The notes: a model not told the origin generated them from the sequence alone. Positions 1,166 to 42,128 are shown, counted from the stretch's first letter. The stretch is DNA of 42,128 nt from an uncultured Gemmatimonadales bacterium (GCA_963850905.1 CAWKMU010000005.1:1-42128); one strand, 5' to 3'. Made by a program: numbers and translations.

Positions 1166-1207
1166 TGTGAGGTTTCCCCCAATGTCCGCATCAGGTTCGT
1201 GGGGACA
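1166..1207. promoter_or_regulatory. Degenerate tandem operator boxes upstream of the BON gene
   Basis: TGTGAG-gtttccc-CCAATG (1166-1184) and CATCAG-gttcgtg-GGGACA (1189-1207), offset 23 bp. TACACT (-10-like) at 1235-1240. Confidence 0.45.
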
Positions 1208-1261
1208 CAATGAGTCAATGCGTGCACCTGCGCGTACACTCAACAAGTGGAGGGACGCAAT

Positions 1262-1924
1262 ATGCAAAGCGACGACATCATTATTCAACAAGACGTGCTG
1301 GCGGAGTTGCGTTGGGATCCGTCGATCACCGACCAGGGGATCGGCGCCACCGTAAAGGCTGGAGTAGTCACCTTGCGTGGCGACGTGCCGAGCTATAGGG
1401 AAAAGCGAGCGGCGGAGCGTGCAGCGGAACGTGTGGCGGGCGTGCGAGCCGTGGTTCAGGAGATCGAGGTCCACGTGCCGACCTCCGTCGAACTGAGCGA
1501 CGAGGCACTGGCGGTTCGTGCCGCGAGCGCTTTGGACTGGGCTGTGCAAGTCCCGAAAGGAACCGTCAAGCCGAGGATCGAGCGGGGATGGGTGACTCTT
1601 GAAGGAACAGTGAAGTACGGGTACCAACGGCTCGGTGCCGAGAGCGTGGTGCGGGATCTGGCCGGTCTGCGGGGCATCACAAACAATGTGAAGGTCGAGC
1701 CGCCGTCCGTATCGCCGACTGCCGTTCGCAATGACATCGAGCAGGCCCTGAAGCGACAAGCTGAGCTCAATGCGACAAGGATCAGCATCGACGCAACAGA
1801 TGGAAGGGTAACGCTGCGCGGAGCGGTGTCGTCCTGGGCCGAGCGACGCGCCGCCGAACACGCAGCGTGGAGCACGCCCGGCGTGACGAACGTCGACGAT
1901 CGCCTCGCCGTGATAACGGGTTGA
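1262..1924 (+). CDS. BON-domain protein (three BON domains, OsmY-like)
   Basis: Three repeats of the G.VTL.G.V...E...AE..A....GV..V pattern. SD GGAGG lies upstream of ATG 1262. Confidence 0.93.
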   Translation: MQSDDIIIQQDVLAELRWDPSITDQGIGATVKAGVVTLRGDVPSYREKRAAERAAERVAGVRAVVQEIEVHVPTSVELSDEALAVRAASALDWAVQVPKGTVKPRIERGWVTLEGTVKYGYQRLGAESVVRDLAGLRGITNNVKVEPPSVSPTAVRNDIEQALKRQAELNATRISIDATDGRVTLRGAVSSWAERRAAEHAAWSTPGVTNVDDRLAVITG

Positions 1925-2093
1925 TTCGAAGCCGATGAGGCAAAAGCTTCGCATGCGGATTCGAAGAGGAAAGTCAGCCCGCATCCTTGTCATACCTATT
2001 GGCGCGCCGGCGCGAGAGCCGGCGCGCTTGGTGCAGGCAGCAGTGGGGGTCGCGACGGCGGATCCAGTGAGCCCCAATGCGATCCGGGAGGTG

Positions 2094-2480
2094 ATGAGCG
2101 TGACGAGACCCGCGCAACAGCGCCCTGAGGGGATTATGCTCCTTCGCCAGAGCTTGGTGGAGGCGTTGCAAGAATCCTGTCGGACGCGTCGCTATGACTC
2201 GCCGCAACTTCGACGTGCTATTCAGGAATTCGCACGGGGTGCAACTCATGCAGGGCTCGGTCTCGAGTGGGTCCAGACATCAGTTGAGGACGCGATTGAG
2301 ACGGCAGTCGTGCCGTCGCTCGACGAGTATCAGAGGGAGACCCTCTGCTCTGCCGTAGGCCGTATGGTCCAGGACGCCGACGTCGTTTGGCCCGCTGCAG
2401 ACTTTTACTCGCGACATGCCGCAGGTGCCACGCCTTCTGCCGCTCGAAGTAAAAACGGGAGGCGAAAGCGGAGCCCGTGA
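2094..2480 (+). CDS. Hypothetical helical protein, paralog of 20115-20537 (start uncertain)
   Basis: Aligns by eye with the 20115-20537 product (YDSPQLRRAIQEFARGATHAGLGLEW vs FDSSSLRAAVGEFARNARHRGLDLKW). Confidence 0.7.
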   Translation: MSVTRPAQQRPEGIMLLRQSLVEALQESCRTRRYDSPQLRRAIQEFARGATHAGLGLEWVQTSVEDAIETAVVPSLDEYQRETLCSAVGRMVQDADVVWPAADFYSRHAAGATPSAARSKNGRRKRSP

Positions 2481-2660
2481 GCGAGCGGGGATCCAACCCC
2501 GTCGGGACCTGTGGAGTGGCTGGAGGAGTCCGGTCTGTCGACGTGTCGTGGCCGAGCGCTTCGTCAGCGCGCTGCAGGTCGACGCCAAGAAGGAACGTGG
2601 ATCACGGCGGCGGCCGTGGGGTGGGTTGAGCCACAAGGCTTGCCCGCGCGATGAGGCCAG

Positions 2661-3332
2661 TCAATGTGCACGCGATCCCACCACGATCAACGTATCGCCT
2701 GTCGCGAGCCGCAGGTCAGGCGGCGGATTCGTCATAAAGGCGCCTGCACTGCCCCGTCGGACGGCGACGAGGTTGGGGAGTCCGGGCAGATACGGTATGG
2801 CGTCGAGGATCGTTTGACCGACCATTGAGCTGCCCGCCGCGAGGGTAGCCTCTTCCATCCACAGGTCGACTTGCTCCGCATCCCGAATGGTGTCGAGAAA
2901 CGCCACGATTCCTGGCGACACAAGCTGGGTAGCCATACGATGCGCGCCGATGGCATACGGGGACACCACTCGAGTCGCTCCCGCTCGCAGCAGCTTGGCT
3001 TCTGAATCCTGTTCGTTCGCCCGGGCTACGATCCGAAGCGTTGGGTTCAGCGCGTGAGCTGAGAGTGCGATCGAAAGATTGATAGCGTCACTTCCTGTCG
3101 CGGCGACCAGGCCACGCGCATGCGCAACGTGAGCGCTAATCAAGATCGCGTCATCGGTCGCGCTTCCGGTCACGGTGTGTGCCAGATGTGTCTCGGCGAA
3201 CGCCCGCGCATCGACATCGATGGCGACGACAGCTCGACTGCGGCGTCGGAGGGCGAGGACTACCTCACGTCCGACGCGGCCGCAGCCACAGATGATGTAG
3301 TGATCCGTGAGCCCGAGTGGTGCCTGCGGCAT
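2661..3332 (-). CDS. Stand-alone RCK (TrkA-N + TrkA-C) protein
   Basis: HYIICGCGRVGRE Rossmann motif, LLRAGATRVVSPY and a TrkA-C tail (GDTLIVVG). No TM segments. Confidence 0.85.
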   Translation of the reverse strand: MPQAPLGLTDHYIICGCGRVGREVVLALRRRSRAVVAIDVDARAFAETHLAHTVTGSATDDAILISAHVAHARGLVAATGSDAINLSIALSAHALNPTLRIVARANEQDSEAKLLRAGATRVVSPYAIGAHRMATQLVSPGIVAFLDTIRDAEQVDLWMEEATLAAGSSMVGQTILDAIPYLPGLPNLVAVRRGSAGAFMTNPPPDLRLATGDTLIVVGSRAH

Positions 3333-3342
3333 CGATAGCGTC

Positions 3343-4404
3343 TCAGCGAGGGCGTTCTACGGGACGGTGCCGACGGTCGGTCGATAGATGCGCCCGTCGC
3401 CTGCCGACGCCGTCGGCGCGGCTGCCCATTTGGTGTATTGCACTCCGCGGCCCGATCGCCACGAGGGTGTCGCCGGCTGCGAGCGCTGTGTCGTGTCGTG
3501 GATTGGTCACAAACTCGGGGTCGCTCGCTCGCCGAAACGCGACAATGTTGAGGCGGTGTTGTGTGGGCGGGAATGCGTCGCCAAGGGTGCGCCCAATCAA
3601 CACGCTGTCTTCGGCGAGCGTAGCGACCTCGAGCCTCAGGTCGACGTCCGGCGCGTGCACGACTGTATCGAAGAAGGCAGTAATTCCTGGTGATAGAAGG
3701 TCCGCTGCGATACGGTGTCCGCCAATGGCGTAGGGTGAGACGACGTGCGTTGCGCCCGCACGGAGAAGCTTGCTTTCAGCCGCAGGCTCGCTCGCTCGTG
3801 CGAGAATCGTGAGGTCGGGCGCAAGGGCACGTGCGGAAAGGGTGATGACCAGGTTCATTGCATCGTCTCCAGTAGCGGCCACGAGCCCACGGGCCTTCGT
3901 GATCCCGGCGCCAAGGAGGACGGCATCATCGCTCGCGTCGCCAGTGATCAGCAGCTCGTCACTCGTATCCAGCGCCTCGAGCGCTCGTTCAATCACCACG
4001 ACCGCAAACCGACGCCGGCGCAAGTCCGCTGCGACCTGGCGGCCGACGCGCCCATATCCGCACACAATGTAATGGTCGGACAGGCAATGGATACTGCGGG
4101 CAAGGCGTCGCCGACGAAACAGGCCAGTGACCACACCGCCCGTCACGTACTCGCCCAGGGCCGACACAATGTAGGCGGCAACGCTGACGCCGGTGACGAT
4201 GAGTGCGACGGTGAACAGTCGGCCCCGTGGCGAGAGCGGATGAGGAGCCTCGAGGCCAACCGTGGAGAGGATCACCACGGCCATATACAAGGCGTCGCCG
4301 ACGCTCCAGCCCTCGATCACCATGTAGCCGAGCATGCCGAGCACGGCCAGGACGGTCAGAAGCGCCAGCGCGCGTACGATACGGTGTGACCACCATCGCC
4401 TCAT
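3343..4404 (-). CDS. Potassium channel family protein (2-TM pore + RCK, MthK/Kch-like)
   Basis: DALYMAVVILSTVGL pore/filter segment, two TM helices, then HYIVCGYGRVGR RCK-N and RCK-C domains. Confidence 0.9.
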   Translation of the reverse strand: MRRWWSHRIVRALALLTVLAVLGMLGYMVIEGWSVGDALYMAVVILSTVGLEAPHPLSPRGRLFTVALIVTGVSVAAYIVSALGEYVTGGVVTGLFRRRRLARSIHCLSDHYIVCGYGRVGRQVAADLRRRRFAVVVIERALEALDTSDELLITGDASDDAVLLGAGITKARGLVAATGDDAMNLVITLSARALAPDLTILARASEPAAESKLLRAGATHVVSPYAIGGHRIAADLLSPGITAFFDTVVHAPDVDLRLEVATLAEDSVLIGRTLGDAFPPTQHRLNIVAFRRASDPEFVTNPRHDTALAAGDTLVAIGPRSAIHQMGSRADGVGRRRAHLSTDRRHRPVERPR

Positions 4405-4513
4405 GCGTAACCCTCGGGACGCTGAAGAACGAGCTGACAGATTGTGGGGCGTGCCCGCGAGTAATGCCAGGCCCGTGCAGGCCCTCAAGAGTCGCGGCTT
4501 TGGGGTAACAGGC

Positions 4514-4555
4514 TGTCAGGCGACCGCCGACAACAAGCAATGGACTGCCCCGACA
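4514..4555. promoter_or_regulatory. Palindromic operator plus tandem half-site between the divergent K+ channel and USP genes
   Basis: TGTCAG-gcgaccg-CCGACA (4514-4532). A second CCGACA at 4550-4555 is offset 23 bp. Confidence 0.75.
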
Positions 4556-4643
4556 GCGCGGACTTTCCTGGTTGACGATCTTCAGTCACGACACCGGCAG
4601 GATCGTTTTCCCTCCTCATGACGTCCGTCCGGACGAGGAGAGC

Positions 4644-5568
4644 ATGCAAATGGCGACCGGATATGACGCCTATCCCAAACCACCGCAGGCGACAGCCGCT
4701 CCAATGCGGGCAATGGGCTCGCCAATCGTTGTGGGCACCTGTGGCACCCGGGACTCAAACGGGGCGATCCGTCTCGCGCACCTCCTTGCGCAACGAGAAT
4801 GCGAGGGCCGTGTACGTTGTCGGAGTGCTCGACACCGACTGGCAAAGCACGTACGGGACGGGTGAGGGTAGCGAACCCTATGACGCGCGGACGGCGGACG
4901 CATTGCTCGCTCGCATCGAGCGTCAGCTCGTCGAGCTCGGGGTACCGGCAGGACAGTGGCCGGTCGGCATCGTCGGGGGCGAACGCGCTGGCGCGCTGGG
5001 GGACATCGCAGGCAACGACCGCACATCGCTCCTCCTGGTCGGCCTGAAGAGTCACATCGCGCTGGCACGGCTCTGGGGGCGGTCGACCGCACTCGGTGCA
5101 GCGAGCAAGGGCAGGCGCACCGTCCTCGCCGTCGATCCGCTGGCCAGAGCGTTGCCGACGTGCGCGGTCGTGGGCACCACCTTCGGCCCGGCCAGTGAGA
5201 ACGCTGCTCGAGCCGCACTCGAATGCCTTGGGTCGTCCGGATCGCTGCACTTGGTGCATGTCCGACCCTTCATGTCCCAAATCGGCGTGGGGGCGCTATC
5301 GACCGACGTGGCGTACGCGCAGGAGATTGCCGACCGCTTGGGGAGCATGATCTCGGCGCTCGGAGCACCAGATGGTGTCCGGGTGCGATGTCACGATTTG
5401 AGCGGCGACCCAGCGAGCCGCCTGCTCGAAGTCGCAGAGCAAGAGCACGCCGACCTCATCGCCGTTGGCACGCACGACCGTCCCGCCTTTGGTGCGTTCC
5501 TCGTCGGCACCGTTGCCTCACGTGTGCTTGGGGTCCACCGAACGTCCGTCTTGGTCGCCTCAGCCTGA
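4644..5568 (+). CDS. Tandem-domain universal stress protein (one +1 frameshift near 4800 as sequenced)
   Basis: The N-terminus PIVVGTCGTRDSNGAIRLAHLLAQR (SD GAGGAG, ATG 4644) continues in the next frame to ADLIAVGTH...FLVGTVASRVL...SVLV. Confidence 0.85.
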
Positions 5569-5731
5569 TGGCAGCATGCTCAATGGACCAGTGGACCACG
5601 CGATTCATCGTACCCGGGGTATCGGGCAAGATCGCCGAGCGCGCCGACTCCGACGGCCCACGATGGCGCTCGTACATGCTCATGCAAATGTCCGAGGAGC
5701 GCTCACCCGCAGCGTTTGAGCATCCCTCGAC

Positions 5732-8326
5732 GTGTCGGCAAACCCTGGCCTCGTAAGCCGGCGGCGGAAACCGGCCCCGCTAATCGGTGCTGCCGGTGAG
5801 AGTGTTGCCGATGTCTTGCGGCGGTGCGCCTCGGTCGCCGACGGGCTAACGTCGACAGAAGCGGAGGTTCGGCTCGCACGATACGGCGCGAACGAGGTCG
5901 CCACACAGCGGCCGATGCGATGGCCCACACGCTTGCTGCGTGCCGTTCGCAACCCGCTGGTCATCCTGCTATCGGTCCTCGCAGGCATCTCGCTGGCGAC
6001 CGGTGACATTCGCTCGACGGTTGTGATGGTGGCTATGGTGGTGTTGGGGGTTGCGCTTCGATTCACACAAGAGGCGCGAGCCGACCGCGCGGCAGCGGCG
6101 CTACGGGCCATGATTCATGTCACGGCCACGGCGATCCGAGATGGTGCGCCTCGCGAGATCCCTCTCTCTGGTATAGTCCCTGGCAATGTCGTCTTGCTGG
6201 CGGCCGGCGACATGATTCCTGGCGACGCTCGCGTACTGGCAGCCAAGGATTTGTTCGTCAACCAGGCGAGTCTGACTGGCGAGTCGTTCCCGGTCGAGAA
6301 AAGGGACGTCCCAGGGGCCGAGCAGGCCGCAACGCTCGCTGAGCATCCCAACTTGGTGCTTCTGGGAACGAGCGTGCAGAGCGGCACCGCCAGGGCGGTC
6401 ATCATCGAGACAGGCCCGCGCACGGTATTCGGTGGTATGATGCAGGGCGTCGGGGCCAGACCAACACCAACGGCCTTTGATCGCGGGATCGATCGCTTCA
6501 CTTGGCTCATGATTCGGTTCATGGTCGTCATGGTGCCGATCGTGTTCTTGGTGAATGGACTCACGAAGCACGACTGGAGGCAGGCGTTCTTTTTCGCCTT
6601 GGCGGTGGCTGTCGGTCTCACGCCGGAAATGCTTCCTACGATCGTGTCCGTCTGTCTTGCAAGAGGCGCGGTTGCCATGGCGAGGCACCGTGTCATCGTC
6701 AAACGCCTCAACGCCATTCAGAACTTTGGTGCCATGGACGTGCTCTGTACGGACAAGACCGGCACGCTGACGATGGACAGCATCATCCTTGAACGCTATG
6801 TGGATGTGGAAGGTCGGTCAGCCAATGCCGTGCTGCGCGACGCGCTCTTGATTAGTCATTTGGAGACCGGGCTCAAGAGCGCGCTCGATACTGCGGTGCT
6901 CGCGCACCTGGCGGGCCATCCGGAGTTGGCAATTGATCAATACCAGAAGGTTGACGAGATACCCTTTGACTTCGCGCGGAAGTTCATGTCAGTGGTCGTT
7001 CACTGCCCTGACGGTCCTTGCCGCTTGTTGGCCAAGGGAGCGCCCGAGGAAATCCTTCGTCGCTGCGAGTCCGTCAATGTCGGCGGCTGTCCGCGAACGC
7101 TCGATGCGGCGCTTCTTACAGCTGCACATGCGGAATACGAGCGGCTGAGCGGCGAGGGCTTTCGCGTTCTTGCAGTCGCGTCCAAGGATGTGGTGCAACG
7201 GGCCGGGTACGACAAACTCGACGAGTGCCGCCTGGTGCTCTCCGGCTACATCGCCTTTCTCGATCCGCCGAAGGAGACGGCCAACGCGGCAATCGGCGCA
7301 CTCGAAGGCAGCGGCGTGCGGGTCAAGATTCTGACCGGGGACAACGAGCTCGTGACCAGGACCATCTGCAACAAGGTCCAGCTGCCGGTCGAGCATGTCC
7401 GCCTAGGCTCAGAGCTCGCCACGATGTCCAATGCAGCCCTGCAGGAGGTCGTTGAGGAGACGACGGTATTTGCCCGCCTGTCGCCTAGCGACAAGGAGCG
7501 GATCATCAAAGCGCTCCAGCGACGCGGTCACGTCGTGGGGTTCATGGGGGACGGCATCAACGACGCTGCGGCGTTGCACATAGCGGACGTGAGCATCTCC
7601 GTCGACAGTGCGGTCGATGTCGCCAAGGAGGCGGCCGCGATCGTCCTGCTGGAGAAGAGCCTCATGGTGCTGCACGACGGTGTCATGGAAGGTCGCAAGG
7701 TGTTCGCAAACATCATGAAGTACATCCGCATGGGCGCGAGCTCCAACTTCGGCAACATGTTCAGCGTGTTGGGTGCGAGCGCGCTTCTGCCGTTCGTGCC
7801 GATGCTTCCGATTCAGGTGCTGACGAACAACCTGCTCTATGATTTCTCGCAGATACCCATCCCGAGCGACAACGTCGATGCGGAGCTGATCTCGCGGCCA
7901 CGGCCGTGGGACATCGGGGCCATCGGCCGATATATCATAGTCATCGGGCCGATCAGTTCCATTTTCGACTACACGACGTACGCGATGATGTGGTTCCTGT
8001 TTGGTGCGAGCACGGTTGCACATGCGGCGCTCTTCCAGACCGGATGGTTTGTCGAATCCCTAATGACGCAGACCCTGATCATCCACGTGATTCGTACGAA
8101 TCGAATCCCATTCCTGCAAAGCAGGGCGAGTTGGCCTCTGTTGGTGAACACGGCGTTGATCATGGGTATCGCCGCCTGGCTGCCCATCTCCCCGTTTGCC
8201 CGTTCATTCGGATTTGAGCCGCTGCCCGGCCTGTACTGGCCCCTACTCGGCCTGACACTTCTCGCGTACGTGGCGTTGACCCAGGCGATCAAAGTCCTGC
8301 TCATCCGCCGACATTGGATTGCGTAG
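5732..8326 (+). CDS. mgtA: Magnesium-translocating P-type ATPase (P3B)
   Basis: TGES, VGLTPEMLP, DKTGT, GDGINDA and ASSNFGNMFS, FQTGWFVES motifs typical of MgtA/B. Start uncertain. Confidence 0.93.
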   Translation: MSANPGLVSRRRKPAPLIGAAGESVADVLRRCASVADGLTSTEAEVRLARYGANEVATQRPMRWPTRLLRAVRNPLVILLSVLAGISLATGDIRSTVVMVAMVVLGVALRFTQEARADRAAAALRAMIHVTATAIRDGAPREIPLSGIVPGNVVLLAAGDMIPGDARVLAAKDLFVNQASLTGESFPVEKRDVPGAEQAATLAEHPNLVLLGTSVQSGTARAVIIETGPRTVFGGMMQGVGARPTPTAFDRGIDRFTWLMIRFMVVMVPIVFLVNGLTKHDWRQAFFFALAVAVGLTPEMLPTIVSVCLARGAVAMARHRVIVKRLNAIQNFGAMDVLCTDKTGTLTMDSIILERYVDVEGRSANAVLRDALLISHLETGLKSALDTAVLAHLAGHPELAIDQYQKVDEIPFDFARKFMSVVVHCPDGPCRLLAKGAPEEILRRCESVNVGGCPRTLDAALLTAAHAEYERLSGEGFRVLAVASKDVVQRAGYDKLDECRLVLSGYIAFLDPPKETANAAIGALEGSGVRVKILTGDNELVTRTICNKVQLPVEHVRLGSELATMSNAALQEVVEETTVFARLSPSDKERIIKALQRRGHVVGFMGDGINDAAALHIADVSISVDSAVDVAKEAAAIVLLEKSLMVLHDGVMEGRKVFANIMKYIRMGASSNFGNMFSVLGASALLPFVPMLPIQVLTNNLLYDFSQIPIPSDNVDAELISRPRPWDIGAIGRYIIVIGPISSIFDYTTYAMMWFLFGASTVAHAALFQTGWFVESLMTQTLIIHVIRTNRIPFLQSRASWPLLVNTALIMGIAAWLPISPFARSFGFEPLPGLYWPLLGLTLLAYVALTQAIKVLLIRRHWIA

Positions 8327-8331
8327 GAACG

Positions 8332-8784
8332 CTACGATCCCGACGTCGCTTCGCGCCCGGTGACCTCGTCCAAATGCAGGCGAAGCACGAGGAGCCGAAA
8401 CGGTACAGGATCGTCCGCCGTGCCCGTGCCGGGTACGAGCTCGCGGAGGAGTTCAACTCCATGCGCGAACGAATGCTGATCGACCGGCGGCGAATCCGAG
8501 TCGAGGAAATACACGGCGCCGTGCACCACCACACTTCGCCAGTCGAATGTGCCCTTGACCTCATCGACTTCAAAGGCAGCCCAACGATGATGCGGGAGAA
8601 TCGCGCTCTTTACTCCGCGCGACGTGCGGCAGTAGATCCAGCCATCGGCGAACACATAGTTGATCGGCTCGATGTCGACGCGGGCCCCACTGGCGTACGC
8701 GATTCGCCCCACGTGGTGACGAGCGAGAAGGGCCTCGCACTCGGCACGGGACAGATCTCTGATGGTCGGTCGAGCGGTTGGCAC
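8332..8784 (-). CDS. Pyridoxamine 5'-phosphate oxidase-like (split-barrel flavin-binding) protein
   Basis: LSRAECEALLARHHVGRIA...EPINY...AAFEVDE...WRSVVVHG...VTGR pattern. Start placed at GTG 8784. Confidence 0.88.
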   Translation of the reverse strand: MPTARPTIRDLSRAECEALLARHHVGRIAYASGARVDIEPINYVFADGWIYCRTSRGVKSAILPHHRWAAFEVDEVKGTFDWRSVVVHGAVYFLDSDSPPVDQHSFAHGVELLRELVPGTGTADDPVPFRLLVLRLHLDEVTGREATSGS

Positions 8785-8991
8785 GGAACCCTGAATGAAA
8801 GAGAAAGAATCCAGGACCAGCGGCTTCATGACTATTTTATGCCCCCCGGCCACCCGGCGCGAGGCGTTTGATGAATGTCGGTGCATTCTCATCCGGCGCA
8901 ATGGCGAGGATCAACGCCGGGACACTGACTACACGCAGCTTTGGTAACACCAACCCTGTTCACCAAACACAAAGTGCCCGCCCTGCTCGAT

Positions 8992-9033
8992 GCTGAGGGT
9001 TTGCCTGGCCTGGTAGTCGGCGAACGCCTGACG
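8992..9033. promoter_or_regulatory. Palindromic operator pair between the divergent PPOX-like and FecR/DUF6600 genes
   Basis: AGTCGG-cgaacgc-CTGACG (9015-9033). A degenerate GCTGAG-ggtttgc-CTGGCC lies 23 bp earlier. Confidence 0.7.
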
Positions 9034-9171
9034 GTCATTCACCAGACACGCCGCCACCTTCTGCACGCATGAACGCAGTTCGGAACTGATTACCGCGCGG
9101 GGCGTATGAGCACAGTGCATGTAGGGACATTCTGCCGTAATTCCGTACTTCCTATCCAAGAAAAGCGCACA

Positions 9172-11052: not shown

Positions 11053-11088
11053 CTGAGTGAGATTGACGGCAAGACATTGATCCGCTTT

Positions 11089-11120
11089 ATCTACTTTCTA
11101 CTTTCAGACATTCTACTCTC
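11089..11120 (+). repeat. Short degenerate heptamer repeat (TTCTACT) in a convergent intergenic gap
   Basis: atctact ttctact ttcagac a ttctact; AT-rich relative to its surroundings. Confidence 0.5.
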
Positions 11121-11152
11121 TCTGGCGCGAAGCGCCAGCAAGGCCCCTTCCC

Positions 11153-11854: not shown

Positions 11855-12084
11855 CGCTCCTCCTTTTCTCGACTGCCTGCAAAATGCCCACGGACGGTCC
11901 TCGTGCCCATCAGCTTTGTCTCTAGCGCTACGACGGTATTCCCCTACAGGCTTGCAAGTGATTCCCAACAGCCAGTGCCCCTTCGGGACGATGCCTTGCC
12001 GCTTGGGGCGTGTTGGCAGCGCTCGTAAATCGTTGGTTCGCTGCCGGGCTCGCGCCGAAAGGGCTGAATGCCACGGCGCATCGG

Positions 12085-24175: not shown

Positions 24176-24180
24176 GACCG

Positions 24181-32039: not shown

Positions 32040-32120
32040 CTTCACGCCGGACGCTGGGCAACGAACGTCGAGAGCCTCGGCTACGAGGCGTAGTGGATTC
32101 ATCTCGTTCGCTGGGGCGCT

Positions 32121-33854: not shown

Positions 33855-34047
33855 GCTCCGTCGCCATGCCGCAGAGGGTGGCAGTTGCAGTACTTGCATA
33901 TCTTTGCCTGTCCCGATCCAGTGGTCGCGGTTCGCGTGGTGACATCGAGTGCGGTAAGGTTGATCGCTCGTGCGACCACAGAGAGTCAGGTGAGTCCGGC
34001 TGTGCTGCGCGACAATCCCTGACATCGCACGGAAGGGGGGGTGACGG

Positions 34048-35904
34048 TCAGCCTGCGGTGCGAGCCGGTGCGCTACTGATTGCCGGCAGCTGGTCGCGAG
34101 TCAGAGACTCTCGCTCCCGCAATAACTCAGCGCCGTGGTCAAGCGCCCGGCGATTCTCTCGGAGGATAATCAGTGCGCGCTCGAGAGCACGCTCCAACAG
34201 TGCGCGCACTGCTGACTCGATATCGCGCGCTGTCTCATCGCTGTAGGGCCCCCCGTCGATCCGGGCGTAGACGTTTGGCTCGAGCAGGGAGGAAGGCTCC
34301 TGGCCATAGACGACATTTCCGACTTTGGCGTCCATCCCGTATTGGGTTACCATCTCACGAGCGAGCCCCGTCGCGTGCGCGAGATCATCCGCCGCGCCAG
34401 TTGACAGCTCACCGAACACCAGCAGCTCCGCTGCGCGGCCGCCGAGCATCACCGTGAGCCTGCCCTCGAGGTCGTGCTCGGTCGCGATGTAGCGCTCTTC
34501 GGCGGGCCGTTGCAACGTGTATCCGAGCGCACTCTGTCCGTGTGGAATGATCGAGACCTTTTGTACCGGATCGGCGCCAGGTGTTGCGAGGGCGACGAGG
34601 GCGTGCCCCATTTCGTGGTAGGCCGTGATCTCGCGCTCTCGCGGACTCAAGACATGACTGCTCCTGGCCAGTCCAGCCACGATGCGTTCTACCGCCACGG
34701 TGACATCTTGCAGAGTGACACTATCCGCGCCGCGTCGCGTCGCGGTCAACGCTGCCTCATTGACGAGATTGGCGAGGTCCGCCCCAGTGAAGCCCGGCGT
34801 AAGCGCCGCGACCTGGTCGAGCTCGAGGTCGGGCGCGACCCGGACCCCTTTGATGTGCACCTGCAGAATCTGAACGCGTCCGGTTCGATCTGGGCGATCG
34901 ACCATGATCTGCCGGTCGAATCGTCCCGCCCGCAGGAGCGCCGGATCGAGAATCTCGGGCCGGTTGGTCGCGGCCAGTAAGACGACGCCGCTCCCGGGAT
35001 CGAAGCCATCGAGCTCCGCGAGGAGCTGATTTAAGGTTTGCTCCTTCTCGTCGTTAGCGCCGCCCACGGTACTGGCTCCACGAGAACGACCGAGTGCATC
35101 AACTTCGTCGATGAAGACGATGCACGGCGCGCTGCGGCGAGCCTGTGCAAACAGATCGCGCACGCGTGCCGCCCCGACACCAACGAAGAGCTCGACGAAC
35201 TCGGAGCCGTTGATGGAGAAGAACGGCACGCCGGCCTGACCGGCGACCGCACGGGCGAGCAGGGTCTTCCCGGTTCCCGGCGGACCCACGAGGAGAAGGC
35301 CTTTCGGCATTCGCGCGCCGAGGCGGCCAAAGCTTTTCGGGTCGCGCAGAAACTCGACCACTTCCTTGAGCTCCGCTTTTGCCTCATCGACGCCGGCCAC
35401 ATCGTCGAATGTCACTTTGGTATGCTGCTCCGCGTAGACCCGTGCGCGACTCTTGCCAAATCTTGTCGCCTCCGCGGCCGGTGTGGCCACCGAACGACGC
35501 ATGATGAGGAGGTCAATGCCTAATGCGAGCAGTAGGGGGAGTACGGTGAACAGCGACTCCAGCCAGCTACTCTTGGGGCCGGCGCTGAATGTGACGTTGT
35601 GCGCGCGCAAGCGGTCGGCGATCGCCGGGTCGACACGCTCGGTGACGAACGTCGACTCGCCCTCGGGGCCAGGTCTCGTGAACGTTCCTCGCAGCTCCGT
35701 CTCGTCGACTTCGACACGCGCGATCCGCCCAGAGTCCAGGGCCGCGACAAAAGCGCTGTACGGGATCCGCTGTACGGCATGATCCGACTCTGATGGCCAC
35801 AGGAGCATCATGACCACCCCGACCACTACCAGCCAACCCGCTGCTTTTGCGGCGGACAGCAACCTGTGATTGGGAGGACCGTTCGCTTCCGATCTGTTGG
35901 CCAT
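34048..35904 (-). CDS. ftsH: ATP-dependent zinc metalloprotease FtsH (probably an accessory paralog)
   Basis: Two TM helices, [34 protein letters not shown] and HEMGH zinc motif. Confidence 0.95.
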
Positions 35905-36075
35905 GCTCGGCGCGCTCCGTTGGCTAGTGTCATCCTTGGTGCAGCTGTGTGCGTTCGAGCTCCGTAGTGCACCTTATGGCCGCGACGGGGCTTCGGCGCG
36001 GCTGTGAGTGTCATGGATATGACCTACCTCAGCGAGACGCAATGGTCAAAGCTCGGCCGCGGGTCGTTTCGCGTC

Positions 36076-36116
36076 TGTCAGGATCAAGTCGCTTCACTGT
36101 CCGCATTTCGCCGACA
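36076..36116. promoter_or_regulatory. Operator plus half-site upstream of ftsH
   Basis: TGTCCG-catttcg-CCGACA (36098-36116). TGTCAG half-site at 36076, offset 22 bp. Confidence 0.65.
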
Positions 36117-36498
36117 GGACACGGGCGTGAGTGCGATGCGCTGCACGGGGTTGCAACCGGCGCAGAGGCCGACGCTCAACAGGTCCGATCTCTAGGAGGC
36201 TCGCTCAGCTATATGCGTGGGGGCTTCGGACAGGTCACTGGTTCGTTCGAGCTCGCCTTGCGCGGCGCTCGTCTGGGATTCGTTCAGGGGTGGCGAGCCT
36301 GCGTTCTCGTTCTTGCAGGAGGCGCCGCTCGAATGTGTCGGAGTTGCTTGCTGGTCGGCATCATTGTCCCGTGTGACTTGAAGTGTGTTTCGCCAGCGCC
36401 ATTGAAGTCCGTGTCCAGTGGATCGCAAATGGTTTCAGGACTGCCACCAATGTCGACACGTGCCGCAGCCGCACAGTCGGGGACTACCACCGCCGCTC

Positions 36499-36517
36499 TG
36501 TCGGATGAGTCCTCACA
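36499..36517. promoter_or_regulatory. Operator upstream of a small membrane-protein ORF
   Basis: TGTCGG-atgagtc-CTCACA, one mismatch to consensus. Confidence 0.6.
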
Positions 36518-36597
36518 CAGCCCGGGGGAGTACCCAATGGAACACCGGACCCATCGAGAGAGATTGGGGCATACGAGTCGCTCTCGATCCTCTCTCC

Positions 36598-36834
36598 ATG
36601 GAATTGCCAATGCCCACCCGTCATCACCGCGCTTCCGCGCACTCGGCCGTCGAAGGGTCGCATGTGCATCCAGTCTGGCTGATTGTTGTTCTCATCGTGC
36701 TGTTGCTCCTTGCGCTCTTGGCCGCGCGGACCATCGTCGGCAAGCCGCACACGTCAAACACGACAAGTGACCATCGGACTGACGGGCGCTCCTCCGAGAT
36801 CGAAAGGTCGAGAGTTGCTCGACCTCGTGCGTGA
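36598..36834 (+). CDS. Small single-TM hypothetical protein (start uncertain)
   Basis: VWLIVVLIVLLLLALLAARTIV hydrophobic helix. Operator box about 80 bp upstream. Confidence 0.5.
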   Translation: MELPMPTRHHRASAHSAVEGSHVHPVWLIVVLIVLLLLALLAARTIVGKPHTSNTTSDHRTDGRSSEIERSRVARPRA

Positions 36835-37044
36835 GGAACGGTGCACGAGCCACAACCGACGTCCCCGCGAGGCTCCGCGGCGATTGCGCTTCGCGTCTCG
36901 TCTACCATTTGGAGTCCCGGATGCCGAGCCGATAGGCGAGGTGGCTGACGACGATGTCCGCCACGAAGCTCGCGACCGCGCTATCTTCGCGTGGCGTGGG
37001 ACGATTCGGATGACGGGTGGTCGCGCGCGTCCGAGGTGGGCTGC

Positions 37045-38140
37045 TTACCTAAGTGTATACCTCAGGGTGACGGCGATCCCGCCGGCCTCCGCGTCCAGCA
37101 ACTCTGCCCCTCCGTCCGCTACCGATTCGACCGTCGCTCGCCCCTCGAACGCGGCGTGAATGGCTTGTTCCGCATCTGCGGGCGACCGCTCTATAAATCC
37201 CTTGCTGAGGAAGACGCGGGTGACCCGGCCCTCGTTCAGCGCTTGCAGAGTTGCGGCGGCGCCCCTCGCGGCGCGCCCGCCGGCACCTGCTACCTCGAGA
37301 GTGTCGCGAATCGCGGCGAGATCCTCCTCTCTGTGGAGGTCTCGGGCACCCGCGGAAGCCGCGCGCGTGATTTCCGGGGACGTCGCCCGAAGGCGTAAGT
37401 CGCTCAGTACGCGCGAGCGTCTTGCAGCGTGATGCGGCAACGCCGCTAACGCTTCATGAGCAGCCGTGGATGGTCCGCCTACCAGCAGCCATCCGTCCGG
37501 TCCGGCTAGTTCCGTCATCCGCGTGCTGAGCGCAGCCATCAGGCGGTGCCGACCAGCGAGGTGCTCCCGCTGCGCCTGGTCCGTATCCGTGCGACCGCGG
37601 GTGCCCTGATGGAAACCACGTTCAGATGCGGTACCCATGTGGGTGCCCGGCTCCGTGTGCGTCGGGGCGTGCAACGTCTCAACGTGCTCAGCGACGCCAT
37701 CTTGGTATCGATCAGATGTCCGCCTGGCGACTATCGACGATCGCCACAATGGCAGGACGCTCTTCCTTGAGGGCCGAGAGTAAAGGCGCAATGCGAATCC
37801 CCCTGCCCCATGAAATCAGCGTCGGCGTCCTGATCGGCAGGGAAGCGGCAAGGCACACGTGCTCGGCTTCGATATAGCCCACCCAACCGTGTGCCTCGAC
37901 GGTCCCGCCCATTTGAGCGATTTCCCGCTCGAGTCCGGCGAGCGCCCGATCGAGTGCCTCGCGCTCGCCGCGCGGCGCACCCTCATACGTCGTCCGGACG
38001 TCGCTGATTGCATGATCAACCCGCACGCGCCAACCGTGACGGGTGGCTGGATCCGCTGGAGCCTGCTCCAAGAACACGCTCAACAGTCGAGTCGAATGTA
38101 GCCTGCGCTCTAGCTCGACCAATGCCGTATACGTCAACAT
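37045..38140 (-). CDS. Bacterial archaeo-eukaryotic release factor (baeRF/eRF1-like) family protein, interrupted by TGA and a +1 shift at about 37713
   Basis: RLLSVFL...APLL...IVAIVDSRQADI N-half. The C-half has LLVGGP and an eRF1 domain-3-like GRAARG...TLQALNEGRV...GGIAVTLRY end. Confidence 0.75.
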
Positions 38141-38547
38141 TAGCACCTCACAGGCTCCGTTGAAGCGTGTTACTCCGTGCTACCGCGGAGCGATTCAGGT
38201 CATCCCGCCTCTTGTCGGACTCGGCGATCGCCCCGATGACCTTCGCAATCGACGACAGACGTTCCTCCCTGTGCGTCGCGGATCAACGTGCGGAGATCAG
38301 CAGATCGTACCCACCCGCATCCGTGGGCGCTCTATCTCTGCGACCAGTCAGCGCAAGAATATTCAGTGGAAGAACTCGGGGGCCAGGAGGGAATCGCCGA
38401 CGGTCGGCGCGGGATCGCCTGACGCCATACTTCACCGGATGGGTCGCGTGCAGCGCGTCGTAGCGATGTGGATGGCGGGGGATGAGGCCGTTTGGTCGAT
38501 GCAAATTCGACCACAATCCAAGCCGCAGGAGGATCGCGTCAGCAACC

Positions 38548-38593
38548 CGTCGGAGATCCCCTGACTGACATTATCGGATAGCGGGTCCACACT
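38548..38593 (+). promoter_or_regulatory. Operator overlapping a putative -35 of the nitroreductase promoter
   Basis: CGTCGG-agatccc-CTGACT (38548-38566). CTGACA (38565-70), 17-bp spacer, CACACT (38588-93). Confidence 0.7.
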
Positions 38594-38620
38594 GAGGCCT
38601 CACAACCACCGGAGCAATCG

Positions 38621-39271
38621 ATGGCCGCACTCACGATCGTGGAGACCACGCGCAACACTATCAGCCTCATAGACCTCGTTTACGGTCGACGAGCGGTCCG
38701 ATCGTACACGTCAAGGGCTGTTGATGAGCCGTTGCTGCGCGAGCTGCTGGATGTGGCGGTGCACGCCCCAACGGCTATGCATGAGGAACCGTGGCAGTTC
38801 GTGATCGTGCAGAACCGCGAGCTCTTGAGGCGGCTGTCGGATCGCGCCAAGGCAATGGCCAGCGAACAAGCGGTGAACCACGGTAATCTGCTCAAGCCAC
38901 CCGGTGCCGCCGGCGACGGGTTCGCGTCGCCACTTGGCGACCCGGAGTTCAACATCTTCTACAATGCCGGAACCTTGGTCATCATCTGCGCGCGGCAGAC
39001 GAGTGAGTTCGTGGCTGCGGATTGTTGGTTGGCCGCCGAGAACCTGATGCTCGTGGCATCGGCGGAAGGACTGGGCACGTGCTGCATTGGGTTTGCCGTA
39101 GCAGCGCTCAACGCGCCCGAGGTCAAAGCAGAGCTCGGCATTCCCGCGGACGTCCGCGCGTTCGCCCCGATCATCATCGGGGTGCCGCGCACACCTCCTG
39201 CGCCGAGTACTCGCAAGCCGCCCGTCCTATTGAACTGGATCCACGAAGCGACCGTGTTGCGTGGTTCCTAG
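38621..39271 (+). CDS. Nitroreductase family protein
   Basis: RRAVRSY, APTAMHEEPWQF, AAENLMLVASAEGLGTCCIG motifs. SD GGAG. Confidence 0.93.
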   Translation: MAALTIVETTRNTISLIDLVYGRRAVRSYTSRAVDEPLLRELLDVAVHAPTAMHEEPWQFVIVQNRELLRRLSDRAKAMASEQAVNHGNLLKPPGAAGDGFASPLGDPEFNIFYNAGTLVIICARQTSEFVAADCWLAAENLMLVASAEGLGTCCIGFAVAALNAPEVKAELGIPADVRAFAPIIIGVPRTPPAPSTRKPPVLLNWIHEATVLRGS

Positions 39272-39447
39272 CGCGGCGCCTACCCCACTCCCTACCCCGG
39301 CGCCGATCGCGGCGAGGTAGGGGTCTGGTTTGACCTTCGGGCCACCACCACCCCGACTCGGATGCGCAACCGTAATTACAGCGCTGAGTTCAAACTGCAG
39401 CTGGTTCGGGAGAAGGGGTGCGGATGCTGGTGGAATGAGCTCCGTAC

Positions 39448-39488
39448 CGTCGGGCTGCGCCTGACAACTGAACGTGTTTTCTCCGACA
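39448..39488. promoter_or_regulatory. Operator plus half-site upstream of the ba3-type oxidase operon
   Basis: CGTCGG-gctgcgc-CTGACA (39448-39466). CCGACA at 39483-39488, offset 22 bp. Confidence 0.75.
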
Positions 39489-39551
39489 GCCGGTGCGAGA
39501 CGCCGCGGCCATGATCCCGGCATCGTTGAGTGACCCGAACCAGAGGATCTC

Positions 39552-39692
39552 ATGTCCGACATGCCTCCCGGTCTTCCGAAGCATCCCATCGGCACGTTCG
39601 CCTTTGTGGGGACCTACGCCGTGGTGTTCATCATCTTGTGGTTCGCGATCTATTTCTTCATCTACCGCGCGAGGGGGGTCGTCACGCCATGA
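39552..39692 (+). CDS. cbaD: Cytochrome ba3 oxidase subunit IIa (46 aa; absent from the ORF track)
   Basis: MSDMPPGLPKHPIGTFAFVGTYAVVFIILWFAIYFFIYRARGVVTP matches the P.G...W...Y...ARG pattern of subunit IIa. SD AGAGGA; ATGA overlap with subunit II. Confidence 0.85.
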   Translation: MSDMPPGLPKHPIGTFAFVGTYAVVFIILWFAIYFFIYRARGVVTP

Positions 39693-40234
39693 AGGTCGAC
39701 CTGTACGAGCGCATATGGATGGCTGGGGTATCCATTATGCTCGCCATCATGTTCATCACGATGGCGATCGCCGCTATTGGCCACTCGGAGACTCCGCCGA
39801 GTCACGTTGAGACGATCAATCCCAGCGCTGTCTTGCATGACGCGCGGTTCCGGCAGGCAGGCGTATCGACCGACGCCGGCGGCCACGTGCACGTCGCGGT
39901 GGTCGGTACGACCTTCACGTGGCTACCGGCCATGATGACTCTGCCAGCGGCGACACCGGTGACGTTCCACGTCACATCCCTCGACGTGATCCATGGATTC
40001 GAGATCGTCCGGACGAATGGCCAAACAATGGTCATCCCGGGGTACGTGAGTCAGTTCACGACCCAGTTTGACGCCGGCGATTACATGATCGTGTGCAATG
40101 AGTACTGTGGTGTCGGCCACCATCTGATGTTCACCAAGATGACCGTGGTACCTGCTGCCCAGTGGCGGGTGCCGGCCGCGAGATACCCCGGGGCCGCGAT
40201 GGTTGCCGCAGGAGGCACCCATGAGCAGCACTAG
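39689..40234 (+). CDS. cbaB: ba3-type cytochrome c oxidase subunit II
   Basis: Single TM helix after DLYERIW. CuA ligands DVIHGF...CNEYCGVGHHLM. Confidence 0.92.
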   Translation: MKVDLYERIWMAGVSIMLAIMFITMAIAAIGHSETPPSHVETINPSAVLHDARFRQAGVSTDAGGHVHVAVVGTTFTWLPAMMTLPAATPVTFHVTSLDVIHGFEIVRTNGQTMVIPGYVSQFTTQFDAGDYMIVCNEYCGVGHHLMFTKMTVVPAAQWRVPAARYPGAAMVAAGGTHEQH

Positions 40235-41912
40235 TGCATCGCAAGCCGCGACCTACTCGCCCAGAGCAGCGAGCCGAAGTGGGCCGTTCGCCGATCATGA
40301 TCTGATTCTGACGAATCTGTGGGTCGCGATCATTGCGTTTGGCTTGGCAGCCTGCATGGCCGTTATGCAAGCGCTGAGTCGGGCGAGCTTGGAGGTCCCA
40401 TACCGGTCGCCGCGCATGTACTACATGTCCGTGACCGCGCACGGCATCCTCATGGCGCTCGTTTTCACGACCTTCTTCATCATGGCGCTGGGCGACGTGG
40501 TGGTCGATACGGAAATCGGTGAATTGCCGTCGCGCGCGTTGGCGCAGGTCTCCTACGCGGTGGCCATCATCGGCACGGTGCTCACGATCGCGACGGTGTT
40601 CACCTTCAATGGGAGCGTGCTCTTCACGTTCTACCCACCGATGCAGGCGAAGCCCGCGTTCTATATTGGACTCACCCTGCTAGTGGTCGGATCGTGGGGT
40701 TGGTGCGTGAACGTCATTCTGGCGTGGGCGAAGGCCCGTAAGGCACGCGCCGATCGACCTGTCAGCCTCGCGATGCACGCGATGGCTGTGACGGCGATGC
40801 TCTGGCTGCTCGCCACTATCGGCGTCGCCTGCGAGATGCTCTTTCAGCTGATTCCGTGGTCGCTTGGCCTCGAAGCACGCATCGATCCGTTGCTGGCGCG
40901 CACCTTGTTCTGGTTCTTCGGCCACCCGCTGGTCTACTTCTGGGTGCTGCCAGCGTACATGATCTGGTACACGGTGCTGCCGCGTGAAGCCGGTGGCAAG
41001 CTGTTCTCCGAGCCGCTGGGTCGAATGGTCTTCACGCTGTTTCTCGATCATCTCGATACCGGTGGGTTTGCATCACCAATTCCAGGACCCCGGCATCGCC
41101 TCGGGATGGAAGTTGTTCCATACCTTCAACACGATGCTGATCTCGTTCCCCAGCCTTGTGACGGCATTTACCATCTGCGCATCGCTCGAAGTCGCAGGAC
41201 GACTGCGTGGCGGCACCGGCCTTTTCGGTTGGATCCGGGCGCTGCCGTGGGGGAACCCCACGGTTGCAGGCGATCCTCTGTGCGATGCTGCTGTTTCTCG
41301 TCGGAGGGTTCGGCGGCGCGGTGAACGCGTCGTTCGATCTCAACTCCGTCGTGCACAACACCGCGTGGATCCAGGGACATTTTCACCTCACCGTGGGCAG
41401 CGCCGTCGCGCTGACCTTCATGGCGACGGCCTACTGGCTGGTGCCCAAGGTGAGTGGACGCAGCCTCGAGCTCGGCCTCCTTGCCAAAGTGCAGCCGTAC
41501 TTGTGGTTCCTCGGGATGTTGCTCTTCTGCGATCTCGAACCACATCACCGGCCTGATGGGGATGCCGCGTCGCATCTTCGAGGGCGCATACGCTGGCCAA
41601 CCGCAAGCGCAAATGTGGCAGGCCCTCACCTGGGTGTCCGCCATGGGCGGCGTGATTCTCTTCGTCAGCGCGATGTTCTTCGTGCTCGTGATGCTGGGAA
41701 CGCTCTTGGCGGGTCAACGCAAGGATCGTGAGGCGATCATCTGGGCGGAGCCGCTCGCGGCGCCAGCCGACGGATTTCACGTTGGCATTTGGGACAATCT
41801 CGGTCGGTGGGTGCCCGTAGCAGTTGCGCTACTCGTCATTGCGTATGCGGGACCCCTGTGGGATCTCTTCCACTTGGTCAGGTACGGAAGCCCAGGATTC
41901 CGGACGTTCTGA
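40221..41912 (+). CDS. cbaA: ba3-type (B-family) heme-copper oxidase subunit I (three +1 frameshifts at about 41047, 41269 and 41528 as sequenced)
   Basis: TAHG, FTFYPPM, LFWFFGHPLVY, GLHHQF, GHFH and GMPRR motifs spread over four consecutive ORF segments. Confidence 0.9.
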
Positions 41913-41953
41913 GAAGCCGGACACAACGGGGTTCGGGACTCGGGAACGTTAAC

Positions 41954-42002
41954 AAACCTCGAAGGCCAGCTGGAAGCACCGTGGCTGGCCTTCGAGGTTT
42001 TT
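41954..42002. terminator. Perfect 17-bp stem-loop between convergent genes (likely bidirectional terminator)
   Basis: AAACCTCGAAGGCCAGC-13 nt-GCTGGCCTTCGAGGTTT followed by TT. Confidence 0.8.
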
Positions 42003-42003
42003 C

Positions 42004-42031
42004 TCGAACGTCCAACGTCTAACGTCCAGCC
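42004..42031 (+). repeat. Heptamer tandem repeat x4
   Basis: tcgaacg tccaacg tctaacg tccagcc. Confidence 0.75.
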
Positions 42032-42033
42032 CC

Positions 42034-42128
42034 TCACACCTCCGTCAGCAGATTCAATCTGACAGCCAGCTTGACGTAGTCGGCCCAATGATTGAGCCCG
42101 AGCTTCTCGTTGATCCGCTGCTTGTAGG
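42034..42128 (-). CDS. 3' end of a NarL/LuxR-family HTH regulator, probably a response regulator (partial; absent from the ORF track)
   Basis: Minus strand reads ..YKQRINEKLGLNHWADYVKLAVRLNLLTEV*, matching the LuxR-type HTH C-terminus ([TH]..R[IL]..KLG......V..A....L). Confidence 0.8.
   Translation of the reverse strand, partial: YKQRINEKLGLNHWADYVKLAVRLNLLTEV

Follow-up and report, generated by a model that had tools for sequence, protein, structure and literature searches.

DosR/DevR of Mycobacterium tuberculosis (the response regulator of the DosS/DosT–DosR system) and OsdR of Streptomyces are NarL-family regulators, in which a REC domain is joined to a GerE helix–turn–helix (HTH) domain, and they act through a repeated palindromic operator, often in phased pairs and with likely autoregulation. 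The same traits recur in the system described here, which is predicted from a 42,128-nucleotide stretch of DNA of an uncultured Gemmatimonadales bacterium (GCA_963850905.1 CAWKMU010000005.1:1-42128, referred to as the window at its full length), and which consists of a 17-bp inverted repeat placed before many of its genes and a NarL-type regulator whose gene is cut by the end of the window. In Burkholderia cenocepacia, the lxa locus is an island of about 50 genes that is activated at low oxygen and overlaps the DosR regulon, according to the available text of Sass et al. 2013 (PMC3721108). NreC of Staphylococcus, the partner of the oxygen-sensing kinase NreB in NreBC, is also a NarL-family regulator and recognises a GC-rich palindrome ahead of the operons for nitrate and nitrite respiration, as given in the available portions of two reports (PMC8139620, PMC5694512). 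In the rhizobial FixL–FixJ system, as in the window, a PAS-containing HisKA kinase is found together with a REC + GerE regulator, the low-oxygen control being that of FixL–FixJ. To our knowledge, almost no gene regulation has been described for Gemmatimonadota, which are abundant soil bacteria, and no report of a regulon or an operator for this phylum was found in the literature searched. In Gemmatimonas phototrophica at 10% O2, the transcriptome shows induction of a cbb3 oxidase, hemN and a universal stress protein (USP), with no motif analysis in the available part of that report (PMC11406998).

In the reading that we consider likely, one NarL/FixJ-type (REC + GerE HTH) response regulator controls a small regulon, with the 17-bp inverted repeat as its operator. 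This operator would take the form GTCRG-N7-CYGAC in the window and GTMRGG-N5-CCYKAC across the family Gemmatimonadaceae. What is new here, and well supported, is the regulator subfamily, the operator and the phylum; a dormancy-type switch as such is of a well-known kind.

The pattern GTCRG-N7-CYGAC occurs seven times exactly in the window, against an expectation of 0.53, and none of 100 shuffles reaches seven. A preliminary description of this DNA had listed these seven copies with each coordinate one base too low (the true starts are 4515, 9016, 15546, 28223, 30902, 38549 and 39449), and its rough estimate of fewer than one exact match by chance agrees with the computed value. All seven lie in intergenic DNA, which makes up 4516 of the 42128 bases (10.7%) on a map built from open reading frames (ORFs) with Pfam support, the Hsp20 and USP starts near 15341-15699 being estimates. 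As had been described, the copies are promoter-side, with five in divergent promoters (4515, 9016, 15546, 30902 and 38549) and the other two (28223 and 39449) before a single gene. The window is one entire contig (C5) of a six-contig, 4.49-Mb assembly, of which C2, C3 (3.65 Mb) and C4 are also named below, and the 69 exact copies of the whole genome reach 16.6 per 100 kb on C5 vs. 1.29 on C3. A control for spacing gave seven copies on C5 at N7 and zero to three at every other spacing from N2 to N13; likewise, GTC-N11-GAC occurs 12 times in the 4.5 kb of C5 intergenic DNA, against zero to four times at other spacings. The motif is thus neither equally frequent in coding DNA nor equally frequent genome-wide, two of the outcomes that the preliminary description had named as fatal to the idea.

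With up to one mismatch allowed, the window holds 19 matches vs. 10.7 expected, 12 of them with exactly one mismatch, suggesting that most of the one-mismatch copies are at chance level. Five of these are intergenic (15464, 15568, 36099, 36500 and 1006) and seven are coding (5143, 6449, 11522, 26917, 27768, 32206 and 40112); the four intergenic copies described before are present, the one at 1006 having been missed. Weaker copies that had been proposed at 1166/1189, 11943/11965 and 33984/34006 find no support, scoring at most 6.6 bits. These bit scores come from a palindromic matrix built from 30 intergenic sites of relatives, with the present genome excluded from training and 14 bits as the threshold. 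At this threshold, the matrix finds nine sites on C5, four on C2, eight on C4 and eight on C3 (21.4 per 100 kb on C5 vs. 0.22 on C3), and the nine on C5 are all seven exact copies plus 15568 and 1006. A count of perfect 5-mer and 4-mer dyads in intergenic DNA missed the motif, all sites being imperfect palindromes. The sites of the window are as follows, with the strand of each flanking gene or operon in parentheses.

1006..1022: candidate operator GTCAAGGATCGCCTGAC, divergent gap between the PEMT-like methyltransferase gene (minus) and the BON-domain gene (plus); one mismatch, 15.3 bits
4515..4531: candidate operator, divergent gap between the K+ channel/TrkA operon (minus) and the USP/P-type ATPase operon (plus); exact, 14.7 bits
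9016..9032: candidate operator, divergent gap between the PNPOx-like gene (minus) and the DUF6600 gene (plus); exact, 14.2 bits
15464..15480: weak third copy in the Hsp20/USP gap; one mismatch, 7.8 bits
15546..15562 and 15568..15584: two candidate operators with starts 22 bp apart, between the Hsp20 operon (minus) and the USP/histidine-kinase genes (plus); 15.6 and 14.7 bits
28223..28239: candidate operator upstream of the HlyD/ABC/ABC-2/molybdopterin-oxidoreductase operon (minus); exact, 20.3 bits, the top score of the window
30902..30918: candidate operator, divergent gap between the phosphoenolpyruvate (PEP) synthase gene (minus) and the phosphofructokinase gene (plus); exact, 16.3 bits
36099..36115 and 36500..36516: two weak candidates in the long gap upstream of the FtsH/L,D-transpeptidase operon (minus); one mismatch each, 10.8 and 11.5 bits
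38549..38565: candidate operator between the hibernation-factor-like gene (minus) and the nitroreductase gene (plus); exact, 17.1 bits
39449..39465: candidate operator upstream of the COX2/COX1 oxidase genes (plus); exact, 15.6 bits

About 13 of some 16 transcription units have a site of at least 14 bits in the upstream gap, which bears out the earlier statement that the motif stands before most units. The units that lack such a site nearby are the FtsH operon (with its two weak sites), the hibernation-factor-like gene (with only the distant shared site 38549) and the regulator fragment. Each of the seven exact copies pairs a GTCGG half with a GTCAGG (CCTGAC) half. A directional reading of the sites, with CCTGAC proximal to the gene, was considered and rejected, since only two of the seven sites have an unambiguous downstream gene, and the four R/Y combinations are about equal in a wider set of 50 sites.

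The motif is retained in related genomes, which are labelled here G004 (same genus) and G006, G007, G010, G019, G020, G021 and G023 (relatives), the present genome being G000. Between G000 and G004, half-sites are retained, and spacers and flanks vary, as seen at five aligned sites: site 4515 has 17/17 bases the same with flanks 83% identical, sites 15546 and 15568 have 16/17 and 17/17, and sites 28223 and 30902 have 16/17 each, with the change falling in the spacer in both. An identical copy of site 4515 is also found in a paralogous locus on contig C4, where sites 15546 and 15568 are retained as well. Queries with sites 36099, 36500, 38549 and 39449 gave no alignment in G004. The FtsH orthologue of G004 has two sites upstream, and the DUF6600 orthologue of G006 likewise has upstream sites. 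In the Hsp20/USP gap, a 23-base block TTTTGCCTCTCATCAATGAG (15494-15507) is fully retained in G004, with variable flanks; this block includes an FNR-like half-site (ATCAA) or could be where ribosomes bind for Hsp20 on the minus strand.

Regulator matches at E ≤1e-40 were found in 26 of 41 related genomes searched. The recognition helix KTVDTYKQR is found in 18 rows of 100% to 55% identity (including the row of G000 itself and one of the unpublished genome G016), a two-residue variant KTVDAYKHR in two rows (52% and 49% identity), and different helices in ten matches at 45% identity or less. For comparison, 16 orthologues from 15 other, published genomes were taken with surrounding DNA of up to 20 kb (258,668 bases in total, 27% intergenic by crude calls). 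Within the genus of the window, sites upstream of the regulator resemble tGTcRGG-N5-CCCTACa, and the pattern was widened to GTMRGG-N5-CCYKAC (at M/K and the inner G/C) after these loci had been viewed. The wider pattern has nine exact matches in the 16 loci and 36 with up to one mismatch, 30 of which are intergenic, whereas nine other spacings in the same loci give zero to two and 6-11, respectively. In held-out DNA, the matrix finds 11 sites in 92,100 bases of extended G004 and G006 islands and six in 49,320 bases around two regulator homologues on the plasmids of Gemmatirosa kalamazoonensis KBS708; in the controls, neither the surroundings of DUF6600 paralogues (117,563 bases) nor those of non-orthologous NarL-type regulators (35,194 bases) yield a site. 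Sites in relatives precede the regulator (G004, G007), FtsH (G004), DUF6600 (G006), USP–DUF5335 (G007, G023), an SCO4226-like gene (G007), PAS/GAF HisKA kinases divergent from NirK-like copper oxidases (G021, G010) and ccoNO (G019). The target families that recur across genomes are FtsH, DUF6600, USP, the SCO4226-like protein, PAS/GAF kinases and the regulator operon. The motif is therefore conserved in promoter gaps at orthologous regulators and target families of other genera, contrary to the failure that the preliminary description had allowed for. On plasmid 1 of Gemmatirosa kalamazoonensis (NZ_CP007129.1 527191-551850), the regulator homologue (55% identity) comes after a HisKA_3 kinase, and the top site of this locus (21.5 bits) is followed, all on one strand, by a YceI-like gene, an unknown ORF and a gene whose product has a NosZ propeller domain; the nosZ-like gene itself has no site directly before it.

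The regulator and its candidate sensor are read from three features.

42034..42126, minus strand: fragment of a LuxR/GerE-type HTH response regulator, its last 30 residues, cut by the contig end
G000 C4:614450-615211, minus strand: complete regulator paralogue, 220 residues, REC + GerE
16829..19582, plus strand: cytoplasmic GAF-PAS-GAF HisKA (PF00512) histidine kinase by Pfam, candidate sensor for the regulator

The window fragment is identical to the C-terminus of the C4 paralogue at 29 of 30 residues, and the paralogue carries PF00072 at 1e-25 and PF00196 at 1.3e-15; a second gene call, that of the genome collection, likewise gives it 220 residues. The preliminary description had placed a NarL-family regulator at the island edge; the C4 paralogue upholds the family, and the edge turns out to be the contig end, so that the sequence expected beyond position 42128 is missing and the complete protein was read from the paralogue instead. 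In G004, a syntenic island of about 89% nucleotide identity lies inside a 3.98-Mb contig and directly adjoins a complete regulator gene, showing that the supposed island edge is a contig break inside the regulator gene. The remainder of the window's own regulator gene is absent from the assembly. The nearest solved structures are VraR (2e-34), DevR (3c3w, 8e-32) and NarL (1e-31), and a scan of the regulator against NCBIfam gave no equivalog at cut-off, the top models (MctR, GacA, NarL and MadR) being far below it. The receiver aspartate of VVVMDLDMPDGDG aligns with the D of DevR VAVLDVRLPDGNG and of VraR VILMDLVMEEMDG, which we take to be the phospho-acceptor residue. The helix segment KTVKNY of DevR, whose residues presumably contact DNA, aligns with KTVDTY in this regulator.

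The promoter of the regulator on C4, which is common to a divergent USP gene, has two sites of 21.0 and 18.6 bits, 52 bp apart, which are the best-scoring pair on C4 and among the best of the genome. These own-promoter sites are retained in G004, and single sites are found in G006 and G007. In most genera outside the genus of the window, a site also precedes a HisKA_3 kinase gene directly upstream of the regulator; this kinase has a hydrophobic, probably membrane-spanning N-terminus, as read from the sequences, and no GAF domain by Pfam. Sites before either the regulator gene or the kinase–regulator operon imply autoregulation. A paralogue of the window kinase adjoins the regulator on C4, and G021, G010 and G020 have related PAS/GAF HisKA kinases beside the regulator locus, with a site in the common gap.

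As for the mechanism, we infer that the motif is bound by this regulator. From one half-site centre to the other is 11 bp, about one helical turn, a distance that would suit a GerE-domain dimer on one face of the DNA; such a fit is a general property of the family. The sites occupy promoter gaps, some 55-130 bp ahead of start codons and often between two divergent operons, and paired sites are 22 bp (15546/15568) or 52 bp (the regulator's own promoter) apart. An extra lone half-site stands at an offset of 16-17 bp beyond the site in 14 of 120 flanks, vs. zero to two at most other offsets, and these phased half-sites together with the site pairs suggest cooperative, helically phased binding. 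The regulator would control its own gene through the sites of its own promoter or of the kinase–regulator operon. The PAS/GAF HisKA kinase would sense the signal, oxygen or redox limitation, a role that in other genera would fall to the membrane HisKA_3 kinase. The regulon would group stress, hibernation and low-energy genes (USPs, Hsp20, nitroreductase, the hibernation-factor-like protein, FtsH, the P-type ATPase, phosphofructokinase, PEP synthase, the oxidase and a NiFe hydrogenase) and in relatives would take in cbb3 oxidase and NirK-like genes. Activation, the promoter geometry and the low-oxygen or redox signal are suggested by position, gene content and analogy with DosR, NreC and FixJ.

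Several observations weigh against the assignment of the motif to this regulator as an activator. A -10 hexamer at a fixed distance from the sites was looked for and not found. Because the regulator was the centre of every surveyed locus, the motif could belong to a different conserved factor in its vicinity, and the exact counts of the wider pattern are partly circular, because the widening drew on the same loci; the spacing control and the held-out loci are free of this circularity. Whole-genome counts of GTMRGG-N5-CCYKAC in the 41 genomes equal those of a reversed-pattern control (10 vs. 10 in G000), a comparison with no power at this degeneracy, suggesting that the signal is local, with only a small part of the regulon beyond the islands. 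For GTCGG-N6-CCTGAC, many genomes give higher counts than the control, with or without a regulator orthologue found, and no phyletic conclusion is drawn from these counts. Genes were called with a crude codon-usage ORF picker, and the stretch with site 9016 is missing from G004. In addition, a search of G000 for the relatives' HisKA_3 kinase gave no orthologue (at best a match 36-38% identical over the catalytic half), and the adjacent kinase is of the HisKA type, which pairs more often with OmpR/NtrC-type regulators, FixL–FixJ excepted.

These points leave room for other readings of the motif. It could be a real operator that is read by a different transcription factor, e.g., an unrecognised HTH protein, with the NarL-type regulator merely a member of the regulon; we regard this as unlikely. 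Sites before the regulator gene would fit a target as well as an autoregulator, binding by the regulator being something we infer from sequence, and the island has ORFs without a Pfam family at 1935-2480, 13666-14016, 19655-20107 and 20115-20537. However, the window ORFs that were scanned showed no further DNA-binding domain, and the motif tracks regulator orthologues with an unchanged recognition helix over at least 12 genera despite differing neighbour genes, while neither the 35 kb surrounding non-orthologous NarL-type regulators nor 118 kb of other loci contain it. The 17-bp dyad itself, with its half-site distance, is of a size that GerE dimers generally suit. A still smaller chance is given to the same regulator binding the motif as a repressor, or acting both ways, so that the island would be switched off by the signal. 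The failure to find a fixed -10 box would fit this, as would a few sites near called starts (27 nt separate 4515 from the start of the K+ channel ORF, and about 9 nt separate 15464 from a possible Hsp20 start), whereas most sites lie 55-130 nt upstream of starts in divergent gaps, which is the layout of the activators DosR, NreC and FixJ, and such activators typically regulate themselves positively through paired, phased sites.

A structural role for the dyad (as an RNA or DNA hairpin, a terminator or a dispersed repeat) in place of protein binding is very improbable. It is an inverted repeat, and all seven copies combine GTCGG and CCTGAC halves, allowing a G-U pair on one strand. However, the 50 sites of at least 14 bits show no covariation, either at positions 3/15 (C-G 26, C-T 10, A-G 7, A-T 2) or at positions 4/14 (G-C 15, G-T 12, A-T 11, A-C 10), and this independent variation of the two halves, without compensation, favours recognition by a protein over a hairpin. 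The copies have unrelated spacers and flanks, the sites are promoter-side and not at gene ends, and a real terminator hairpin in the window looks quite different from the dyad. This hairpin (41946-42032, -61.6 kcal/mol, z -5.3) is bidirectional and stands between the convergent COX1 and regulator genes; it has short AACGTC-like repeats at its flanks, and about 15 similar copies (78-91% identity) are found on C3.

An operator of the NarL/FixJ-type regulator remains the reading that we prefer, and under it the genes of the window would be targets as listed here.

78..41912, both strands: predicted target genes PEMT-like, BON, TrkA/K+ channel, two USPs, P-type ATPase, PNPOx-like, DUF6600, DLH hydrolase, ABC-3 transporter and PRTase
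78..41912, both strands (continued): predicted target genes Hsp20, MoCo oxidoreductase, ABC-2/HlyD, PEP synthase, phosphofructokinase, L,D-transpeptidase, FtsH, MSMEG_1130-like hibernation factor, nitroreductase and COX2/COX1

By Pfam and NCBIfam, the stress and maintenance genes encode a three-BON protein, two USPs, Hsp20, FtsH, an L,D-transpeptidase, a nitroreductase and a PNPOx-like protein, and one protein of the window is weakly like the MSMEG_1130 family of ribosome hibernation factors. Transport is represented by a K+ channel with TrkA, a P-type cation ATPase (5732-8326), an ABC-3 transporter and an ABC-2/HlyD exporter, and metabolism and respiration by a PRTase, a dienelactone-hydrolase-fold protein (DLH), a molybdopterin oxidoreductase, PEP synthase, phosphofructokinase and COX2/COX1. 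The GAF-PAS-GAF HisKA kinase, DUF6600 and the PEMT-like methyltransferase make up the signalling and other genes. Three genes are split in the window: PEP synthase (28307-30771, minus strand) over two frames, COX1 (40203-41912, plus strand) over three and the hibernation-factor-like gene (37045-38146, minus strand) over two, each being one intact ORF in the syntenic G004 island (842, 588 and 396 codons, respectively). PEP synthase and COX1 have single-base indels relative to G004, none in a long homopolymer, and the hibernation-factor-like gene aligns with G004 without a gap over the aligned stretch; the split genes are either real pseudogenes or assembly errors.

A second site-rich stretch is contig C2 (49 kb), with sites at 4633, 4970, 8924 and 29447. 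The top site there (21.4 bits) has a NiFe hydrogenase operon on one side and a multihaem cytochrome gene on the other, and further sites are near USP, BON and SCO4226-like genes. The genes of C2 include the NiFe hydrogenase with hyp, multihaem and bc-type cytochromes, PGK, a malic enzyme–PTA fusion, USPs, BON proteins, an erythromycin-esterase-family protein and ccm, and one site-bearing segment (the TauE promoter) is duplicated on C4 at 626.4 kb.

The paralogous locus on C4 (C4:607649-614539) is compact, at 7 kb, and repeats the window ends 62-790 and 41952-42126 plus five internal blocks (81-96% identity). It has the gene order of the window (PEMT, USP, PNPOx-like, USP, GAF-PAS kinase, regulator) and lacks about 35 kb that lie between those genes in the window; the 42-kb island and the compact locus are either diverged paralogues or two strains in the bin. 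DNA of the window was detected in soil metagenome runs of one study only, and no RNA run was found to contain the locus. The closest relatives of the regulator come from sources named 'Gemmatimonadaceae bacterium', and the best plasmid matches are from Gemmatirosa kalamazoonensis. A megablast of 25 kb of the window against plasmids gave a single match of about 600 bp, to Ralstonia; positions 7502-8098, within the P-type cation ATPase gene, have 76% DNA identity to Ralstonia solanacearum megaplasmids, which hints that island genes may have been exchanged between phyla.

The prediction yields a testable operator and a regulator subfamily defined by the helix KTVDTYKQR, and a cultured carrier of both exists in Gemmatirosa kalamazoonensis KBS708 (plasmids 1 and 2). 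It would also be a further instance in which the regulator of the same stress and low-oxygen genes differs from phylum to phylum. A broader proposal, which we put forward tentatively and hold to be rather doubtful, is that this two-component system is the master low-oxygen and dormancy switch of Gemmatimonadaceae, the third independently recruited regulator for dormancy genes after DosR (Actinobacteria) and Anr/FNR (Burkholderia lxa), and one that also ties stress and hibernation genes to soil-relevant respiratory enzymes. If this is true, the switch would tie those genes to the NiFe hydrogenase (G000 C2), the cbb3 oxidase (G019), the NirK-like copper oxidases (G021, G010) and possibly the nosZ neighbourhood of Gemmatirosa, and the operator could predict when Gemmatimonadota consume H2, nitrite or N2O in soil.

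Compared with the described systems, the island resembles the DosR regulon and the lxa locus in content. The gene families common to the island and the DosR regulon are USPs, Hsp20/alpha-crystallin, nitroreductase, phosphofructokinase and cation P-type ATPase, as given in the available text of PMC3721108. In the window, such a DosR-like set (USPs, a small heat-shock protein, a nitroreductase, glycolytic/fermentative enzymes, a cation ATPase and a hibernation factor) lies behind one operator, as seen in both gene content and sites. The PRTase, DLH, erythromycin-esterase and aeRF1-like hibernation-factor families also belong to the DosR regulon. We note several differences from DosR. The phylum is different, and the helix reads KTVKNY in DevR and KTVDTY here. 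The G/C runs are closer together in this motif than in the Dev box, the core of which (GGGAC-N4-GTCCC, within a 20-bp palindrome) has no match at up to one mismatch in the window, in agreement with the earlier statement that the motif is not the DosR consensus. Finally, DosS and DosT have tandem GAF domains with HisKA_3, whereas the window and C4 kinases are GAF-PAS-GAF with HisKA, and the relatives' HisKA_3 kinases have no GAF match.

The lxa locus, in the available text of PMC3721108, resembles the window in its USPs, alpha-crystallin, nitroreductase, phosphofructokinase, cation ATPase, Zn protease/FtsH, ABC/HlyD-type transporters and two-component systems, and in a short dyad at many intergenic points. 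However, the lxa motif is the Anr/FNR-type TGA-N6-TCA with CRP/FNR proteins as the proposed regulators (PMC3721108, available text), whereas the regulator linked to the window is NarL-type, and no CRP/FNR domain or gene was found among the window ORFs scanned. The FNR box TTGAT-N4-ATCAA has 20 loose matches at up to two mismatches (7.0 expected), with only one at up to one mismatch; 18 of the 20 are in coding DNA, and those at 15353 and 15494 are in the estimated Hsp20/USP gap. The preliminary description was thus right that the motif is not an FNR box.

With regard to NreBC, many orthologues of this regulator are called 'NreC' in the automatic names of JGI, and some sites here read GTAGGG-N5-CCCTAC. 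These resemble the probable NreC box TAGGG-N4-CCCTA, from which they would differ by one base in spacing, and the regulon content here is far wider than nitrate respiration. The window kinase matches the FixL model at 2.7e-46 and the regulator matches the FixJ model at 6.6e-17, both below cut-off; other families match better, and there is no sign of orthology to FixL–FixJ. The targets and the box of FixJ also differ from those here. In its working, the system is analogous to both the DosR regulon and the lxa locus, and it is a member of neither.

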